Positions 13,620 to 47,455 of a stretch of DNA of 64,000 nucleotides are shown piece after piece. The position numbers and the translations under genes were made by a program. The DNA is from Synergistales bacterium. GTDB lineage: Bacteria > Synergistota > Synergistia > Synergistales > JAFGMB01. The stretch lies in contig OY762654.1 in the NCBI GenBank assembly GCA_963666205.1, positions 2,144,001 to 2,208,000 of the forward strand, given 5' to 3'. Every line of letters begins with the position of its first letter. Position 1 is the first letter of the stretch. Below the pieces are notes generated by a model. It saw only the letters and a program-made list of their open reading frames with translations. It had not been told where the DNA came from and searched no databases.

Positions 13620-14955
13620 ACTTAGCCCTGAGCTTGTTACTATCTTAATGCTGGGTGGAGTCCTGTTCCTTGTCATGACGGGGTTTCCCATCGCTTTTGT
13701 GATCGGGAGCGTAGCTTTCTTTGTGGGTCTTCTCGTTTTTGGCCCCACTACTACGTTCCACATCCTTTACAGCAGGTTTTACGGTCTTTCACTGAATTAC
13801 CCATATCTGGCGGTGCCTTTATTCACCTTCATGGGGGTTATATTGCAACATTCAGGGGTCACAAAAGATCTTTACGAGTGTCTTTATGAAGCTCTTGGAA
13901 GGCTTCGTGGAGGATTGGCAGTGGTAACTATAATCTTTGGAACCATCCTTGCAGCCTGCCTTGGCGTAATAGCTGCATCGGTAACCATTCTTACCCTTAT
14001 TGCCCTTAACCCTATGATCTCCCGTGGTTATGATAAAGCCCTTGCTTCCGGTTCCATAGTTGCCGCAGGCACTCTTGGTATCCTCATCCCGCCCAGTATA
14101 ATGCTTGTGGTCTATGCCCCTCAGGCGGGGCTTTCCATCGGTCAGATGTTCATGGGCGCCGTTTTCCCCGGGCTCCTTCTTTCTGCGTTCTATATTACCT
14201 ACGTCGTTATTCGGTGTGCCCTGAATCCGGCCATAGGACCGGCGATTCCGGAAGAGCAGATCACTCCCTTTTCCTCCAAAAAGCTTATCCGACTTCTGGT
14301 ATCCCTTGTTCCTCCTCTGCTACTGATAGTGGCTGTTCTGGGGACCATATTTGCTGGTATAGCTCCACCCACGGAGGCGGCGGCTATAGGATGTTCCGCG
14401 GCGATACTCCTGGCAATAGGCTACAGGAAATTCACCTGGAATCTTATCCGGGAGGCATCTCTCCAAACCATGCGGGTAAGTGCCTTTGTTGTTATGATCG
14501 CAGCATTGTGTTATGCATATGTAGGGATCTTCATGAGTGCGGGGGCAGGGGATGTGGTCGCTGATTTTATCCTCTCCGTTCCAGGAGGGAGATGGATGTC
14601 CTTTTTCGTGATCATGGCAATAGTGTTCATGCTCGGCATGTTCATCGAATGGATAGGGATAGTTTTCATAGTTGTTCCCATCTTCTCTCCCATTATAGTA
14701 GCTCTGGGTTTTGATCCCCTCTGGGCGGGGATGATGGTATGTATAAACCTGCAGATGGCCTTCCAGACACCCCCTATGGCCATGTCGATCTTTGTCCTTA
14801 AAGGCACGGCCCCTCCGGAACTTGGTGTTACCATAGGGGACATAATAAGAGGTGTAATTCCTTTCATCCTGATCATTATGGTTGTACTGACACTGTGTGC
14901 CGTATTCCCCGGTATCATAACCTGGCTGCCGGCAAAAATGATCGGGACCTTTTAA
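13603..14955 (+). CDS. dctM: TRAP large permease
   Basis: AVPLFTFMG, GTLGILIPPSI, PTEAAAIG and QTPP motifs. Confidence 0.93.
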   Translation: MRLLIELSPELVTILMLGGVLFLVMTGFPIAFVIGSVAFFVGLLVFGPTTTFHILYSRFYGLSLNYPYLAVPLFTFMGVILQHSGVTKDLYECLYEALGRLRGGLAVVTIIFGTILAACLGVIAASVTILTLIALNPMISRGYDKALASGSIVAAGTLGILIPPSIMLVVYAPQAGLSIGQMFMGAVFPGLLLSAFYITYVVIRCALNPAIGPAIPEEQITPFSSKKLIRLLVSLVPPLLLIVAVLGTIFAGIAPPTEAAAIGCSAAILLAIGYRKFTWNLIREASLQTMRVSAFVVMIAALCYAYVGIFMSAGAGDVVADFILSVPGGRWMSFFVIMAIVFMLGMFIEWIGIVFIVVPIFSPIIVALGFDPLWAGMMVCINLQMAFQTPPMAMSIFVLKGTAPPELGVTIGDIIRGVIPFILIIMVVLTLCAVFPGIITWLPAKMIGTF

Positions 14956-43370: not shown

Positions 43371-44330
43371 TCAGCACTCTGTTCCAGGATCTATCAGGTT
43401 AACCATTTCTCCCTCACCATCCAGATAGACCTTCAGATTATGCCTTATTATCTCCAGAGCCTTTTCCAGGTACCTTACAGATTCTCCACAGATATGAGGG
43501 GTAATGAAGACATTCTCCATTTCCCATAGCGGGCTATCTTGAGGAAGGGGTTCCGTGTAGAATACATCTGAAAAAAATGCCCGGAGTCTGCCAGTTTCAA
43601 GAGCTTCAACAAGATCTTCCTCATTGACTGTTTTTCCCCTTCCCATATTAATGAAACAGGATGTTTTCTTCATAAGATCAAAGTACCTGCGATCAACGAT
43701 CTTCTCTGTTTCCGGAGTGTGGGGTAGAAGATTTATCACATATTCACTCTGACGGAAAATCTCTTCCATCTCCAGAGAAGTATAGACCCTGTCCACATAT
43801 TGTATTTTCTCTGCTGTCTGTTTTGTTCCTATTACCTTCATGCCCATAAGGTTGGCCTTTTCAGCAATTTCCCTGCCAATTGCTCCAAGTCCGAGGATTC
43901 CCACAGTAGCACCTTCTATCTGGTCCTGTGCAGGAGAACGATCCCATTTCTTCTGCTGTCTGTTTCTTATTATTGCAGGGAAGTTTCTTGCCATCATTAT
44001 CATTGCCGCAATCGCATATTCAGCCATATGTACCCGATGAATTCCCTTTCCGCTTGTAAGTATGATTCCCATATCCTTCATCTTTTTTAGGGGAAGGTCG
44101 TCAATTCCGGCTCTTATGGACTGAACCCATTTTAGTAGAGGTGCCATGTCGATCATTTTTTCTGTAAGTTTTATGGTAATGAAAATTTCCGCATCCTTTA
44201 TTTTTTCCTCTATATTCTCCAGATCATTGCAAAACTCAAAATGTATGTCAGGAAACTCCTCGACAAGAGGCATGGCATCACTTTCAGGGTAATAGGCGGT
44301 ATAAAATAAAACTTTTCTCAAATTGCTCAC
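43371..44330 (-). CDS. D-2-hydroxyacid dehydrogenase
   Basis: GILGLGAIG, LP.TPET, INMGRG, DVF..EPLP and TPH motifs. Start is GTG 44330 or TTG 44321. Confidence 0.92.
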   Translation of the reverse strand: MSNLRKVLFYTAYYPESDAMPLVEEFPDIHFEFCNDLENIEEKIKDAEIFITIKLTEKMIDMAPLLKWVQSIRAGIDDLPLKKMKDMGIILTSGKGIHRVHMAEYAIAAMIMMARNFPAIIRNRQQKKWDRSPAQDQIEGATVGILGLGAIGREIAEKANLMGMKVIGTKQTAEKIQYVDRVYTSLEMEEIFRQSEYVINLLPHTPETEKIVDRRYFDLMKKTSCFINMGRGKTVNEEDLVEALETGRLRAFFSDVFYTEPLPQDSPLWEMENVFITPHICGESVRYLEKALEIIRHNLKVYLDGEGEMVNLIDPGTEC

Positions 44331-44451
44331 TCCTTCATTGTGATATTTTGTAAGTTGGTTCTTAATACATACTAAGGGTATAATTAATAATATCATTATC
44401 AGCTTCAAGGCGAAACGTATAATTATGGATTTGGAGAAAGGGGATAACTGA

Positions 44452-44784
44452 ATGAGTGGACATAAAATAAAAGTTTATATGGAGAAGGCGAGATCGGCTT
44501 CCTGCTGAGCTTCCATGCCCTATAGTAAAGAGGATAGAAGTACCTCTCCTGTTGAAGCGAACCGTGTGTTCGCCGCCGATCTGATGGGTAAGATAAGGGA
44601 AAAATACGGGGATCGAATGAGGATAGACATATATGATCCCCGATGTCCTTTATGGATATTTGACCTGATAAGGTTCAATGTAAGGGCCACTCAAGTTGTC
44701 TGGGTGATGGATGGGAAGCTTCTGGCCAGGGGAATACCTTACTGGGAAGAACTGGACAGCAGGATAGAAGAATTTATGCAATAG
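44452..44784 (+). CDS. Putative selenoprotein, 110 aa, thioredoxin-fold/ArsD-like with vicinal Cys18-Sec19
   Basis: RBS (ggagaaagggga) plus ATG 44452 gives MSGHKIKVYMEKARSASC-TGA(44506-44508)-AS, in frame with the 44515..44784 ORF. A hairpin follows downstream. Confidence 0.75.
44529..44547 (+). promoter_or_regulatory. Putative SECIS hairpin
   Basis: AGAGG-A-TA-GAAG-TA-CCTCT; the G-initiated loop lies 28 nt after the UGA. Confidence 0.5.
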
Positions 44785-45001
44785 AACATAAGGTATAAAG
44801 ACGTTTCAAGCTTTTTGTCTGCTGTCCATACTGTATATGGTAGGAAGGCTGATCACCTGAGATATGCCAATAGTGCAAAAATATAAGAATTTTATTGTAA
44901 AGGTTGAAATTTTACAAATAAGTAGTACTATGTGATACCTCGGTTTGTATAAGCCGATTATTGTATATTGTATATTAAGTTTGCAAGGAGATGGCTCCAC
45001 C

Positions 45002-46273
45002 ATGAATAGTTCACAATGGATAGGGCTCCTGATATTTCTGGGAACATATATTCTGATAGTAAGTGAGAGGGTTCACAGACTTAAAGCAGCTCTTCTCGGA
45101 ATATCTGCAGTACTTCTGATCCAGCTTGTTGAACAGACAGATGCCTTCTCTTACATTGACTTCAATACCATCGGATTACTCATAGGCATGATGATCCTGG
45201 TCGGGATCATCCGGAAAACGGGAATGATACAGTACATAGCAATAAAGGCAGTAAAGGTGAGTGCGGGTAATCCCTGGCTGCTTATGATTATGCTGTCAGG
45301 ACTTACTGCAATTATTTCTGCCCTGATCGATAATGTAACAACAGTTCTTCTTATAGGCCCCATAGCTCTTGCAGTTGCTGAAGTTCTGAAAGTGGATCCC
45401 GTGCCATTTATCTTTGCCGAGATATTCTCTTCCAACATTGGGGGGACTGCGACTCTCATCGGAGATCCGCCGAATCTTCTCATAGGCTCTGCCGCCGGCC
45501 TTTCCTTCAATGACTTTGTGCTTAACCTTGGACCTGCTGTCCTTTTATCCCTTGCAGTAATGTACGGAATCCTCTATTTCTGGTATGGCAAAGAACTTCG
45601 TCCTTCTGAACTCACGATCCACATTGCAGAAAATTTCAAGGAGCCCAAGGGACCGGAAGATATAGGACTGATTAAAAGGGTTTTACTTGTAATGCTGCTT
45701 GTCCTTACAGGTTTTATTTTCCATGGAAGACTTGGTATCGAAGCTGCTACCATTGCCCTTGCCGGAGCGACTCTGGGATTGCTGGTATGCCCTGTTGATG
45801 TAGAGGAAATTTTAAAGGATGTGGACTGGGTGACAATTCTGTTCTTTTCATCCCTCTTTATGCTTGTAGGGACCATAGAGCATCTTGGCCTTATCAGACT
45901 CCTGGCTGATCTTATGGTTACTGTAGTGGGCAGCCATTTTAAGGTTCTGTCCATTCTCCTGATATGGGGTTCCGGTATCATCTCTGCAATAGTGGATAAT
46001 GTTCCTTATACAGCTGCGATGATACCCCTCGTAAGGGATATAACTTCTCTGTCTGGTGTCCAGTCAGATTTTCTCTGGTGGTCCCTGGCCCTGGGTGCCT
46101 GTCTCGGAGGAAACGGGACACTTGTTGGTGCTTCGGCAAATCTGGTGATGGCAGGCATAGCAGAAAAGGACGGGATAAAAATCGATTTCAGGGCTTTTCT
46201 TGGCAGGGGCTCTGTAATGCTCTTCTTAACCCTTCTGGTTTCAACTCTTTACGTCTTTTTCCGTTACCTCTGA
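45002..46273 (+). CDS. ArsB/NhaD (IT superfamily) anion permease
   Basis: IDFNTIGLLIGMM, SALIDNVTT, SNIGG.AT.IGDPPN, SAIVDNVP and LGACLGGNGT..GASAN motifs. Confidence 0.92.
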   Translation: MNSSQWIGLLIFLGTYILIVSERVHRLKAALLGISAVLLIQLVEQTDAFSYIDFNTIGLLIGMMILVGIIRKTGMIQYIAIKAVKVSAGNPWLLMIMLSGLTAIISALIDNVTTVLLIGPIALAVAEVLKVDPVPFIFAEIFSSNIGGTATLIGDPPNLLIGSAAGLSFNDFVLNLGPAVLLSLAVMYGILYFWYGKELRPSELTIHIAENFKEPKGPEDIGLIKRVLLVMLLVLTGFIFHGRLGIEAATIALAGATLGLLVCPVDVEEILKDVDWVTILFFSSLFMLVGTIEHLGLIRLLADLMVTVVGSHFKVLSILLIWGSGIISAIVDNVPYTAAMIPLVRDITSLSGVQSDFLWWSLALGACLGGNGTLVGASANLVMAGIAEKDGIKIDFRAFLGRGSVMLFLTLLVSTLYVFFRYL

Positions 46274-46422
46274 TCCCACCCTTTAGCAATACTGAAAACT
46301 TACTCTCTTTCTTGCCTGGATCGCTGATCATTTTTGGGAAAGGGACATACTGATTCTTTTCGAAAAAACGATAGTGATGTACAATTCTAGTGGGTTAAAG
46401 TATTTTGAAAGGAGGAATGTTG

Positions 46423-47085
46423 ATGAGTCTGCAGGATAAACTTGATGTGATAGCGGCAGAATCAAAAAAGAGGTTTCCAGAGGATGCTCTGATGATCCTC
46501 GGTGAATTTAGAAAAGAGCTTGGTAATAGTGGGCTTAAGGAGAAAATTCCTGGAGAAAACAGCCTTCTTCCCCCCTTTGAGCTGGAAGATGAAGAGGGCA
46601 GATCCGTTTCCTCTGAAGACTTTCTTGCCAAGGGTCCCATGGTTCTGACATTTTACAGGGGGAGATGGTGACCCTACTGCCGTCTGCAGTTGCAGGCTTA
46701 TGAAGAGGTATATCTATCCATAAAGGAACTTGGTGCAAATCTGGTAGCAGTATCTCCAATGCTTTCGGCTTTTATCAGTGAATTCAGGGAGGAACTCGGT
46801 ATTACATTTCCCATACTATGTGACAGATCGAACAGGTATGCCTCCAGGCTGGACCTGACCTATATAATTTCCAATAATGTCCGGGAGGTTTATAAACAAT
46901 CAGGTATAGACCTTCCATTCTATAATGGTAATGAAAGCTGGGATCTACCAGTTACTGCGACTTTTATCGTTGATATTGAGGGTATTATCAGGTTTGCATG
47001 GAAGGAAACGGATCATACAAAAAGGCCGGAACCTGAATATCTTGTCGACTTTCTCAAGCAAATGAAAACCAGCGGGTTCTTTTAA
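46423..47085 (+). CDS. AhpC/TSA peroxiredoxin-like selenoprotein (UxxC), 220 aa
   Basis: The two ORF-track pieces are in frame across TGA 46669-46671: FYRGRW-U-PYC-RLQL, matching the family motif FYRGxWCPYC. Also LVAVSP, LP..ATF..D..G.I and R.EP. Confidence 0.9.
46682..46697 (+). promoter_or_regulatory. Putative SECIS hairpin
   Basis: GTCTGC-AGTT-GCAGGC begins 10 nt after the UGA, with G in the loop. Confidence 0.65.
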
Positions 47086-47164
47086 GGCCAGGTCCAGTCG
47101 CAGAAACCCTGATGATATAAACCCTACTGATCAAATATAATGTTGAGTGCGATCAAGCGTTAAA

Positions 47165-47455
47165 TTAGCTGTAAGTTCCGCATTCGGACAGGGTCTCTAT
47201 CTTCCGGTTACGGAAAAAGAGGAATATGTCAATGGATATCATCAGGATGTTTACGAGATATAATGCAGTAAGATAGCTGAAGCCAGGATAATCCAGGATA
47301 ACATGGGTTATCCCTGCAGAATATCCTGTGAGAACTATTAACAGGAAAAGGAGACTTTTCCCTTTTGTGCTTTGAGATACATATGATTTATAGACCGATA
47401 CCGGCCAGGCCAGGCCGAAGCATGCTATCATAACAGCTTCAAGTATTTGCCCCAT
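47165..47455 (-). CDS. Small PQ-loop/SemiSWEET-like membrane protein
   Basis: Three TM segments; M..CFG..WP.S..KS...ST.GKS..FL motif. Confidence 0.7.
   Translation of the reverse strand: MGQILEAVMIACFGLAWPVSVYKSYVSQSTKGKSLLFLLIVLTGYSAGITHVILDYPGFSYLTALYLVNILMISIDIFLFFRNRKIETLSECGTYS

Follow-up and report, generated by a model that had tools for sequence, protein, structure and literature searches.

Gene callers report an 89-aa open reading frame at 44515-44784 of the window, by which we mean the whole stretch of 64,000 nucleotides. The question raised by this locus is whether that frame is a complete gene or the shortened reading of a longer one, which starts further upstream and passes through an in-frame TGA. 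We consider it probable, at roughly 0.87, that positions 44452-44784 encode a genuine 110-residue selenocysteine (Sec) protein with a thioredoxin-like fold, belonging to an undescribed family of Synergistota. The layout of the locus is as follows.

44433..44443, + strand: Shine-Dalgarno-like site GGAGAAAGGGG, 8 nt 5' of the ATG
44452..44784, + strand: proposed complete gene of the selenoprotein, 110 codons and a TAG stop, Sec at codon 19
44503..44505, + strand: Cys18 codon TGC, vicinal to Sec
44506..44508, + strand: TGA proposed to be read as selenocysteine (U19)
44515..44784, + strand: 89-aa ORF reported by gene callers (table 11), a shortened reading of the same proposed gene
44644..44646, + strand: Cys65 codon TGT, within the motif DP[RK]C where strand 2 meets helix 2

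Reading frame and the Sec/Cys column

From the ATG at 44452-54 the frame runs through TGC-TGA (44503-44508) to the TAG at 44782-84 and yields 110 amino acids with Cys18-Sec19 when TGA is translated as U. The preliminary description of this DNA had placed an ATG with a ribosome-binding site at 44452, in frame through one TGA (44506) that directly follows a Cys codon, and had given the same readthrough protein; our reading of the sequence agrees with it on each of these points. It had also remarked that the 89-aa ORF lacks a good ribosome-binding site, and indeed the ATG of that ORF is preceded by gcttcctgctgagcttccATG, with no purine-rich site. Purine-rich sites like GGAGAAAGGGG are also found 5' of the chosen starts in homologues. 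The genome itself carries two copies of the selenoprotein gene.

The first comparison set consisted of 61 related genomes, and further loci were added from a search with a 7-sequence alignment. Matches were found in 28 of the 61 genomes, 33 in total, of which 19 contain an in-frame stop that is always TGA. The TGA lies in the U19 column in 18 of these 19; the exception (L027) is a Cys form whose TGA follows masked bases. With the added loci, the family comprises 28 distinct Sec genes and 44 full-length Cys homologues. The preliminary description had proposed that homologues should conserve the N-terminal 18 amino acids and align Cys with TGA at position 19, and that residues other than Cys at this position would speak against it. 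Such residues were looked for, and the column holds U or C in 72/72 full-length members (28 U, 44 C). Both Sec and Cys forms conserve the 18 residues 5' of the TGA, as [KR][IL]K[VI][FY].E.P, and in the 44 Cys forms the corresponding 18 codons run contiguously into the rest of the protein. Residues invariant in 26 sequences are E11 before the TGA and D62, P63, W84, P96 and W98 after it.

The Cys-Sec dyad that had been described is present in this gene, but its Cys is not invariant: of the 28 Sec forms, 22 have Cys before the Sec, another 5 have Gly there and the remaining one has Ser. Several family members read VCUGG or VCUSG at the dyad, and distant Cys homologues have loops with CC, CCC or CGCGC. 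A second cysteine distinguishes the two forms, the Cys65 position being Cys in 26/28 Sec forms as against 1/44 Cys forms.

A protein-cluster search with a Cys homologue (P0011) returned two unnamed Synergistota clusters; an archaeal cluster, Thioredoxin_3 and DUF1462 came up as weak leads. Long repeat-rich proteins among the representative matches (P0029, P0046, P0047) were set aside as spurious, P0046 and P0047 being visibly unrelated repeats. By these sequence comparisons the family is small, unnamed and, among named records, so far confined to Synergistota. The family stays under the cut-off of every Pfam and NCBIfam model, and one of this kind is absent from both selenoprotein catalogues, that of 2022 and that of 2026, in keeping with the preliminary description, which did not recognise it as a described selenoprotein family. 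Bacterial selenoprotein families continue to be reported in batches, with 87 in the 2022 catalogue and 119 in the 2026 catalogue. Synergistota is noted as a selenoprotein-rich phylum in PMC5029168, and the deep-Sep study reports that two Synergistota genomes yielded no new selenoprotein gene. All database records of Sec forms that we saw are 'hypothetical protein' entries of 61-96 aa, called short from the first Met 3' of the TGA. Because these records are shortened, the selenoproteomes of Synergistota are probably under-counted by at least this family. With a profile built from the family alignment, annotation pipelines could recognise the gene at its proper length.

Predicted fold and the question of ArsD

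The AlphaFold2 model of the readthrough protein is thioredoxin-like (pLDDT 85.5, pTM 0.77), with a beta-alpha-beta-alpha-beta-beta-alpha topology that matches solved thioredoxins. The best Foldseek matches are thioredoxins (E 3e-4, TM ~0.55), and alignment with VIA-align gives thioredoxins at Z scores of 10.2 to 8.1 with rmsd values of 2.3-2.8 Å over 84-86 residues, the best having a Z of 10.2 and an rmsd of 2.3 Å over 84 residues. The thioredoxin fold proposed in the preliminary description is thus borne out by all three programs. By hhalign, the family aligns with Thioredoxin_3 at a probability of 59% (E 9.3e-5) over columns 70-106, which lie in its C-terminal half. A PDB profile search found nothing beyond RNA-free RNase P, whose short matches of ~39 columns at E 1e-4 were taken as chance.

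The least improbable alternative accepts the selenocysteine and assigns the protein elsewhere. It would be a divergent ArsD metallochaperone, in which the CC pair has become CU and As(III)/Sb(III) is passed on to efflux, possibly to the ArsB/NhaD-superfamily permease encoded downstream. The vicinal C-U pair does lie on a loop after strand 1, like the thiol pair of ArsD, and the CC, CCC or CGCGC loops of the distant Cys homologues could be read in the same way. So could the CU-type motif rows of the 2026 catalogue (seven CU and one CUxxT), of which 7/8 are metal, Fe-S, organometal or Sao-system entries and the eighth is KCU-star. However, Cys18 is replaced by Gly or Ser in 6/28 Sec forms, no Cys is conserved at +5 of the dyad, and the second conserved Cys (Cys65) is 46 residues away. 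The C-terminal segment 'LDGK..RG.P.W.EL' resembles 'LLDG.IV..GRYP' of ArsD, as had been pointed out before. This resemblance is real, but it is common to small thioredoxins, and these score better: hhalign of the family against 7 Synergistota ArsDs gives a probability of 0.8% (E 0.07), again in the C-terminal half only, which is under that obtained with Thioredoxin_3.

Profile searches tell against ArsD as well. The PF06953 model matches 0/26 members at E<=1 and is silent at the locus in the genome itself, yet it finds true ArsD in 8/151 genomes of the phylum. A match to the ArsD-related VcpD model (NF047871) favors a link, although its score is 11.8 bits (E 0.16) where the cut-off is 90, and it occurs in 1/26 members; VcpD is found in 0/151 phylum genomes, and the model is also silent in control genomes. 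Among the 50 matches listed by Foldseek and the 50 listed by VIA-align there is no ArsD chain, which counts as an absence only.

The selenoprotein gene has as its neighbors genes for a 2-hydroxyacid dehydrogenase and for a MamN/DASS-like permease. The latter, the next gene at 45002-46273, belongs to the ArsB/NhaD superfamily and scores 88 and 76 bits with ArsB models, which could suit an efflux partner. These scores are nevertheless far under the ArsB cut-offs, the best scores are to MamN and DASS models, the permease has a promoter-like site of its own, and its synteny with the selenoprotein gene is seen within the genus only. No ars genes (arsA, arsB, arsR) flank the locus, and neighborhood clustering over 26 family loci gave lineage-local synteny only, with no common partner and no functional clue. 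The link to ArsD made in the preliminary description is therefore not upheld, and we regard a divergent ArsD as improbable. The reading of the gene as a member of a separate, thioredoxin-like Sec family is preferred.

Proposed decoding of the UGA

A more basic objection is that the TGA is a plain stop, the gene being either broken by a recent nonsense mutation or the source of two products, a peptide of 18 residues and an independently started protein of 89 residues. The 89-aa ORF is after all what gene callers give alone, and the hairpin of this gene is by itself statistically unremarkable, as described below. Against this, the same TGA column occurs in 28 genes from several families of the order. 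In the tree the Sec forms make up one clade (28 Sec forms and 1 reverted Cys form, support 93/88), so that the TGA has been kept across several Synergistales families. The tree requires two changes of the Sec/Cys label and indicates that Sec arose once from Cys in the family and was then retained, with one reversal. The upstream 18 codons are conserved as protein and are contiguous in the Cys forms, as noted above. The internal ATG is without a ribosome-binding site, and the start Mets of the shortened calls in other species are non-homologous. Finally, contigs of RNA libraries from a 93-95% identical strain keep the TGA and have no difference listed within 44424-44525. An ordinary stop is thus very improbable. 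Equally slight is the chance of UGA readthrough without selenium, by near-cognate Trp/Cys insertion or local reassignment, since TGA is an ordinary stop in these genomes with many family genes ending in it, homologues always have Cys, the classic counterpart of Sec, at this position, and a full Sec system is present together with other TGA-containing selenoprotein genes.

The Sec machinery, whose presence the preliminary description had asked to be confirmed, is encoded in this genome with every component over its curated cut-off: selA (564.7 bits), selB (364 bits, adjoining selA), selD (333.7 bits; the gene has 1 TGA of its own) and tRNA-Sec (77.1 bits). Other TGA-containing selenoprotein genes are selD and a Prx-like gene in the window. 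Among the relatives, selA is present in 56/61, so its co-occurrence with the TGA forms discriminates little; no selA was seen in one genome with a TGA form (G043, 80% complete). We propose that the UGA at 44506-08 would be decoded as selenocysteine by the SelA, SelB, SelD and tRNA-Sec of the genome. An intra-coding stem-loop just 3' of the UGA may aid this decoding, and its elements are listed here.

44509..44558, + strand: SECIS-like stem-loop region, lower stem 44509-13/44554-58, middle stem 44522-25/44549-52
44529-44547, + strand: upper hairpin, AGAGG/CCUCU with two inner pairs and a GAAG loop at 44537-40

The hairpin that had been described at 44529-44547 exists, and its GAAG loop begins 28 nt after the UGA. 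According to the bSECIS model of PMC13188914, the loop has 3-9 nt with a G within its first two nucleotides, lies 16-37 nt after the UGA and has an MFE <=-7.5. By itself this hairpin does not exceed chance level: the 71-nt fold has an energy of -10.7 kcal/mol (z = +0.40), with 126/200 shuffles at least as stable, and the local hairpin of the window reaches only -6.1 kcal/mol, with a synonymous-shuffle z of -0.39. It is the comparison across relatives, not the single sequence, that raises the finding over chance.

A hairpin is found in 28/28 Sec genes, and the distance from the UGA to the start of its loop is 19-33 nt. A gene of the same genus (L002) has the upper hairpin unchanged, and no difference is listed within 44529-47 in the 93-95% identical strain. 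RNAalifold gave no consensus fold for all 18 Sec genes, because the register of the hairpin differs between subgroups, and a subgroup of 14 genes was therefore analysed. In these 14 Sec genes of shared register, 91.3% of cells pair and there are 3 compensatory pairs, a result reached by 7/500 shuffles. With synonymous-codon shuffles, z is below 0 in 18/18 Sec genes (mean -1.30), as against 10 Cys genes that average -0.57. It should be mentioned that, as counted by eye, Cys forms that share the GEEEMKSFP peptide retain 5 to 7 of the hairpin's 8 pairs, and the conservation of the hairpin may therefore partly reflect the protein level. A scan of 44300-47200 at E<=1 found no match to any Rfam model.

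Upstream of the gene there is a candidate promoter.

44396..44423, + strand: sigma-70-like promoter (TTATCA, 16 nt, TATAAT), 10/12 matches

The RNA-library contigs of the 93-95% identical strain cover the whole ORF, extending over 44424-44865 and 44409-46053; such libraries may contain DNA, and the contigs reveal neither transcript ends, the start included, nor translation. The RNA runs X3 and X4 have no cover over 44300-44957, an observation that carries no evidential weight.

Candidate chemistry and comparison with known systems

The product would be a cytoplasmic protein whose thioredoxin-like fold is without the usual CxxC and cis-proline. Its reactive residue would be Sec19, usually preceded by Cys18, on the loop that connects strand 1 to helix 1, which is long and poorly ordered. 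By fold topology, Cys65 after strand 2 should sit at the same edge of the sheet as Sec19. Given that the protein is real, its chemistry may be that of a redox center working through a selenenylsulfide, either Sec19-Cys18, comparable to the GCUG of thioredoxin reductase, or Sec19-Cys65; we would put this at somewhat under even odds. A soft metal(loid) or selenium site with S-Se-S ligands, resembling ArsD in action without being an ArsD, is a less probable option, and some other chemistry takes up the rest.

A more specific suggestion, which we make tentatively and think rather unlikely, is that this is a Synergistota-specific thioredoxin fold in which CxxC and cis-Pro have been replaced by a mobile Cys-Sec pair and by Cys65, gained together with Sec, to make an S-Se-S site. 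If so, the site could be either a stand-alone 'CU' redox arm or a selenium analogue of the three-thiol metalloid site of ArsD, and it would represent a new active-site architecture in the thioredoxin fold, beyond a swap of Sec for Cys. Because Sec has a single origin here, the association of Sec with Cys65 may reflect shared ancestry and not functional coupling. With one switch, one reversal and a co-occurring second Cys, the family offers a compact test case for Sec retention, and it would present a thioredoxin fold with the reactive residue on a loop, not at the start of a helix.

Among known proteins, the small thioredoxins of Thioredoxin_3 (PF13192; MTH895/MJ0307 type) have the same fold class and size as the family. 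Their C-terminal 'i..I..FGvMsT-P.LavDGKVl.aGk.Ps' aligns with 'fd.iRf.ikatEv.WVLdgk.lfRG.IPsWeeL' of the family, and Glu81 falls at the cis-Pro position of Thioredoxin_3 (T-P against T-E in hhalign). TIGR00411 has weak matches in 7/26 members (best E 0.0024). The PF13192 model matches 1/26 members (E 0.004), under its gathering score, and a scan of the genome with it finds two true Thioredoxin_3 genes elsewhere with no match at the selenoprotein locus. The catalogued 'Thioredoxin-like selenoprotein Sec.1 / Sec.2' (CxU / UxC) belong to the Thioredoxin_3 type. In contrast to these, the family has no CxxC, CxU or UxC directly after strand 1; its Sec lies ~9 residues after that strand, on a loop longer than in Thioredoxin_3.

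Selenoprotein W and the Rdx-like proteins share the small thioredoxin-like fold (2fa8, Z 9.1, rmsd 1.8 Å over 74 residues; mouse SelW, Z 8.3). Unlike the family, they use CxxU at the start of a helix, and there is no sequence match to PF10262. The sole named NCBIfam models that match even weakly, VcpD and NF047660 (a thioredoxin-like selenoprotein with a HUIPC motif), describe small proteins whose thiol/selenol motifs are vicinal or nearly so; the latter matches 3/26 members with a best E of 0.058, far under its cut-off. ArsD and the family have in common a thioredoxin-type fold, a vicinal pair on the loop following strand 1 and a C-terminal segment of the form 'DG....G.(Y/I)P'. The ArsD consensus has CCxxxxC, whereas the family has C-U or G-U without the third Cys, and it is without the C-terminal Cys pairs of ArsD.

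Mammalian thioredoxin reductase has a C-terminal Gly-Cys-Sec-Gly redox arm, in which adjacent Cys and Sec lie on a flexible segment, as they do in the family. The dyad of the family sits on a loop inside a thioredoxin fold that stands alone, whereas that of thioredoxin reductase is the tail of a flavoenzyme, and the likeness between the two is one without homology.

Reading frame and surroundings of the window gene

The candidate selenoprotein gene and its neighbours are arranged in the window as follows.

Upstream, divergent: genes for a 2-hydroxyacid dehydrogenase, a CoA-disulfide-reductase-like flavoprotein and a NUDIX NADH pyrophosphatase
Ends at 44423, + strand: sigma-70-like promoter, TTATCA-16-TATAAT, 10/12 matches
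44433-44443, + strand: GGAGAAAGGGG, 8 nt 5' of the ATG (sequence reading)
44452, + strand: ATG start of the window gene (sequence reading)
44503-44508, + strand: TGC-TGA, codons of Cys18-Sec19 (sequence reading)
44515-44784, + strand: table-11 ORF of 89 aa (ORF listing)
44529-44547, + strand: hairpin AGAGG/CCUCU with two inner pairs and a GAAG loop that begins 28 nt past the UGA
44782-44784, + strand: TAG stop, up to which the frame is open
44904-44931: promoter-like site in the spacer 44785-45001, between the selenoprotein and permease genes
44940-44957: terminator-like hairpin in the same spacer, overlapping the listed TTG start of the permease
Downstream, co-directional: ArsB/NhaD-superfamily permease, best matches MamN and DASS, under cut-offs
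46405-47085, + strand, downstream and co-directional: Prx-like selenoprotein gene (AhpC/TSA), TGA at 46669-46671

Translation from 44452 with TGA read as U gives 110 residues including Cys18-Sec19. The sequence agrees with the preliminary description, which had proposed an upstream ATG, an in-frame TGA directly after a Cys codon and readthrough to 110 aa; its remark that the 89-aa ORF lacks a good ribosome-binding site is also correct, as no purine-rich site precedes the ATG at 44515. RNA-library contigs from a strain 93-95% identical span 44424-44865 and 44409-46053 with the TGA retained; these libraries may include DNA, and the contigs carry no information on transcript ends.

For the permease, ATG 45002 looks likelier as the start than the TTG. 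The Prx-like gene is a split ORF pair joined by reading the TGA through (FYRGRW-U-PYC). A Pfam AhpC-TSA match (1.3e-22) covers residues 55-197 of its product, spanning the stop, and the gene is consistent with the UxxC selenoproteins catalogued as 'Prx-like thiol:disulfide oxidoreductase'. The gene order of the window is retained in a same-genus MAG and not elsewhere, and no neighbour is common to the family across 26 loci.

Selenocysteine and cysteine forms among relatives

Six-frame searching of the window's own genome together with 60 relatives (61 genomes) gave 33 matches, spread over 28 genomes. An in-frame stop, TGA every time, is present in 19 of the 33, and 14 are stop-free. Once frames had been oriented and extended, the TGA fell in one common alignment column in 18 of the 19; the remaining match (L027) is a Cys form broken by masked bases. 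A further 17 loci, without exception from Synergistales, came from a scan of genome contig records (among them an Acetomicrobium hydrogeniformans MAG, Aminivibrio, Aminobacteriaceae and Synergistaceae), 10 of which are new Sec genes. In a 26-sequence alignment, which omits L016 (start unclear), L027 and L028 (partial) and L030 (second TGA), the invariant columns are E11, U/C19, D62, P63, W84, P96 and W98.

The 18 residues N-terminal of the TGA are conserved in both Sec and Cys forms, and ribosome-binding sites precede the upstream starts of homologues. Database entries for Sec forms are 'hypothetical protein' records of 61-96 aa, beginning at whichever Met comes after the TGA. The extended N terminus and the Cys/TGA position of the preliminary description both hold in the homologues. 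Of 72 full-length members, 28 have U and 44 have C in column 19 (72/72 U or C), a set that includes L016 and L030 and omits every database protein <105 aa, P0015, P0029, P0035, P0046 and P0047, and three further six-frame matches without an assigned locus.

Maximum-likelihood analysis of the 72 proteins places the Sec forms in a single clade with 29 rows (28 Sec plus one nested Cys form, P0011; support 93/88). This clade covers several families of the order, and on the tree the Sec/Cys label requires two changes. Cys65, in the motif DP[RK]C, occurs in 26 of the 28 Sec forms (absent from L011 and L059) and in 1 of the 44 Cys forms (P0011); because of the single origin, this Sec-Cys65 link is indistinguishable from shared ancestry. 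Both forms are found within one genome in G002 and G003, so they are separate lineages and not simple mutual replacements. The stop-free, putatively Cys-type copies of these two genomes lie at G002:C9:13341-13658 and 13923-14240, in tandem, and at G003:C208:4107-4424.

The window's own genome (G000) carries a second family copy at G000:C1:1785949-1786266 (L029), 54% identical and also C-U, with the motifs VCUSN and DPRC, flanked by genes for a cupin and a PAS-domain sensor. Next to this copy in the tree, a long branch (0.94) holds the window gene and its same-genus orthologue, which look like a divergent genus-level duplicate. It is noted that L030, the same-genus orthologue of the second copy, has a second TGA at the codon expected for the invariant Trp84, which may mean that the gene is broken or that the assembly is in error.

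Decoding machinery and the SECIS-like hairpin

All four components of selenocysteine decoding are found in the window's genome over their cut-offs: selA (564.7 bits), selB immediately downstream of it (364 bits), tRNA-Sec (77.1 bits) and selD (C1:2905894-2906826, L033; 333.7 bits). The selD gene has one in-frame TGA and is the usual Sec-containing SelD. A selA match is present in 56 of the 61 genomes. Of the 16 genomes that hold a TGA form, 15 have such a match, and the one without it (G043) is 80% complete; since selA is near-universal in this order, the co-occurrence discriminates little.

The hairpin that the preliminary description placed at 44529-44547 exists, with its loop 28 nt after the UGA, but on its own it is no better than chance (z +0.40, with 126/200 shuffles folding equally well or better). 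According to PMC13188914, the bacterial SECIS model has a loop of 3-9 nt with G in its first two positions, a UGA-to-loop distance of 16-37 nt and an MFE <= -7.5 kcal/mol. A hairpin is present in 28/28 Sec genes, its loop starting 19-33 nt past the UGA; the energies lie between -20.9 and -6.1 kcal/mol, the weakest value being that of the window gene. The stem is encoded in most members by the codons of G-E-E-E-M-x-S-F-P; the window gene and its same-genus orthologue have KEDRSTSP instead, yet also form a hairpin at this position. Among 14 genes with a common register, 91.3% of cells pair, versus 50-68% with the partner slid; two-sided changes occur at three pairs, and the observed values are reached by 7/500 shuffles. 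Under synonymous-codon shuffling, 18/18 Sec genes have z <0 (mean -1.30), versus an average of -0.57 for 10 Cys genes; these values come from related genes and are not to be read as a probability. Cys forms with the same peptide retain 5-7 of 8 hairpin pairs, counted by eye, so part of the hairpin may be protein-borne or a relic. Overall, the SECIS evidence is supportive, short of decisive.

Fold, possible chemistry and known families

The thioredoxin fold suggested in the preliminary description is borne out by structure prediction and comparison. The AlphaFold2 model from the alignment (pLDDT 85.5, pTM 0.77) has predicted strands at residues 4-9, 56-61, 83-86 and 89-93, predicted helices at 26-55, 66-74 and 98-109, and a low-confidence hairpin at 14-23 (block means 65-67) that bears C18-U19. 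The top Foldseek hits in the PDB are thioredoxins (best E 3.3e-4, TM about 0.55); VIA-align, run on 48,161 chains, gives Z scores of 10.2-8.1 for thioredoxins and of 9.1 and 8.3 for SelW-related proteins.

The family is small, with 37 representatives at E <=1e-3 among 1.84 billion proteins. A clustered-database profile search gave 58 proteins; all names given are 'hypothetical protein' and all named organisms are Synergistota. A small family combining a thioredoxin fold with an internal C-U is absent both from Table 1 of a 2022 selenoprotein review (87 families) and from the available part of Table 1 of a 2026 review (119 families and subfamilies). In the latter, nearly all rows are tied to a Pfam or NCBIfam model, none of which matches the family. 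No literature joining 'selenoprotein' and 'ArsD' was found among the full-text matches listed. The deep-Sep work reported 0 new genes in two Synergistota genomes, which may or may not carry the family. Judged by these sources, the family is undescribed, in agreement with the preliminary description.

The analysis establishes the reading frame, the Sec/Cys column, the decoding system, the fold class and the family's range; the chemistry is inferred. Sec19 would be the reactive residue, carried on a mobile loop, and Cys65 follows strand 2. Strands 1 and 2 of a thioredoxin fold run parallel and adjacent, with their C-terminal loops at the same sheet edge, so this topology would bring the Sec19 and Cys65 loops to one edge. 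We assign a probability of roughly 45% to a selenenylsulfide redox cycle with Cys18 or Cys65 as the partner; the GCUG arm of thioredoxin reductase is a model for Cys18 in this role. Both the thioredoxin fold and the second Cys gained together with Sec argue for redox chemistry. Less probable, but a serious alternative, is an S-Se-S site that binds a soft metal(loid) or selenium; pointing to metal binding are distant homologues with Gly-rich CC, CCC or CGCGC loops, and 7 of 8 CU-motif rows in the available part of the 2026 catalogue, which are metal, Fe-S, organometal or Sao-system proteins. Some other chemistry takes the remaining probability.

A specific relationship to ArsD (the arsenic metallochaperone, PF06953), also put forward earlier, is not supported by the comparisons. 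The ArsD model, run on 151 genomes of the phylum, picks out true ArsD in 8 of them and never matches a family member, and the profile-profile comparison gives a probability of 0.8% (E 0.07). The model of VcpD, an ArsD-related vicinal cysteine protein (NF047871), finds 0 in the same 151 genomes and has no match in control genomes either. One true ArsD of another Synergistota genome (L035, G142:C34:100931-101305, minus strand, 152.8 bits) ends GGCCCKG-TGA-TGC-TGC-TAA, where the TGA may be a plain stop or a C-terminal Sec in a Cys-rich tail.

No Pfam model matches the window protein. Among 26 members, weak matches far under cut-off were obtained with TIGR00411 (7 members, best E 0.0024), NF047660, the HUIPC-motif thioredoxin-like selenoprotein (3, best E 0.058), Thioredoxin_3 (PF13192; 1, E 0.004) and VcpD (1, E 0.16). 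In profile-profile comparison, the match to Thioredoxin_3 has a probability of 59% (E 9.3e-5) and covers the C-terminal 36 columns, where the T-P (cis-Pro) of Thioredoxin_3 aligns with a T-E of the family.
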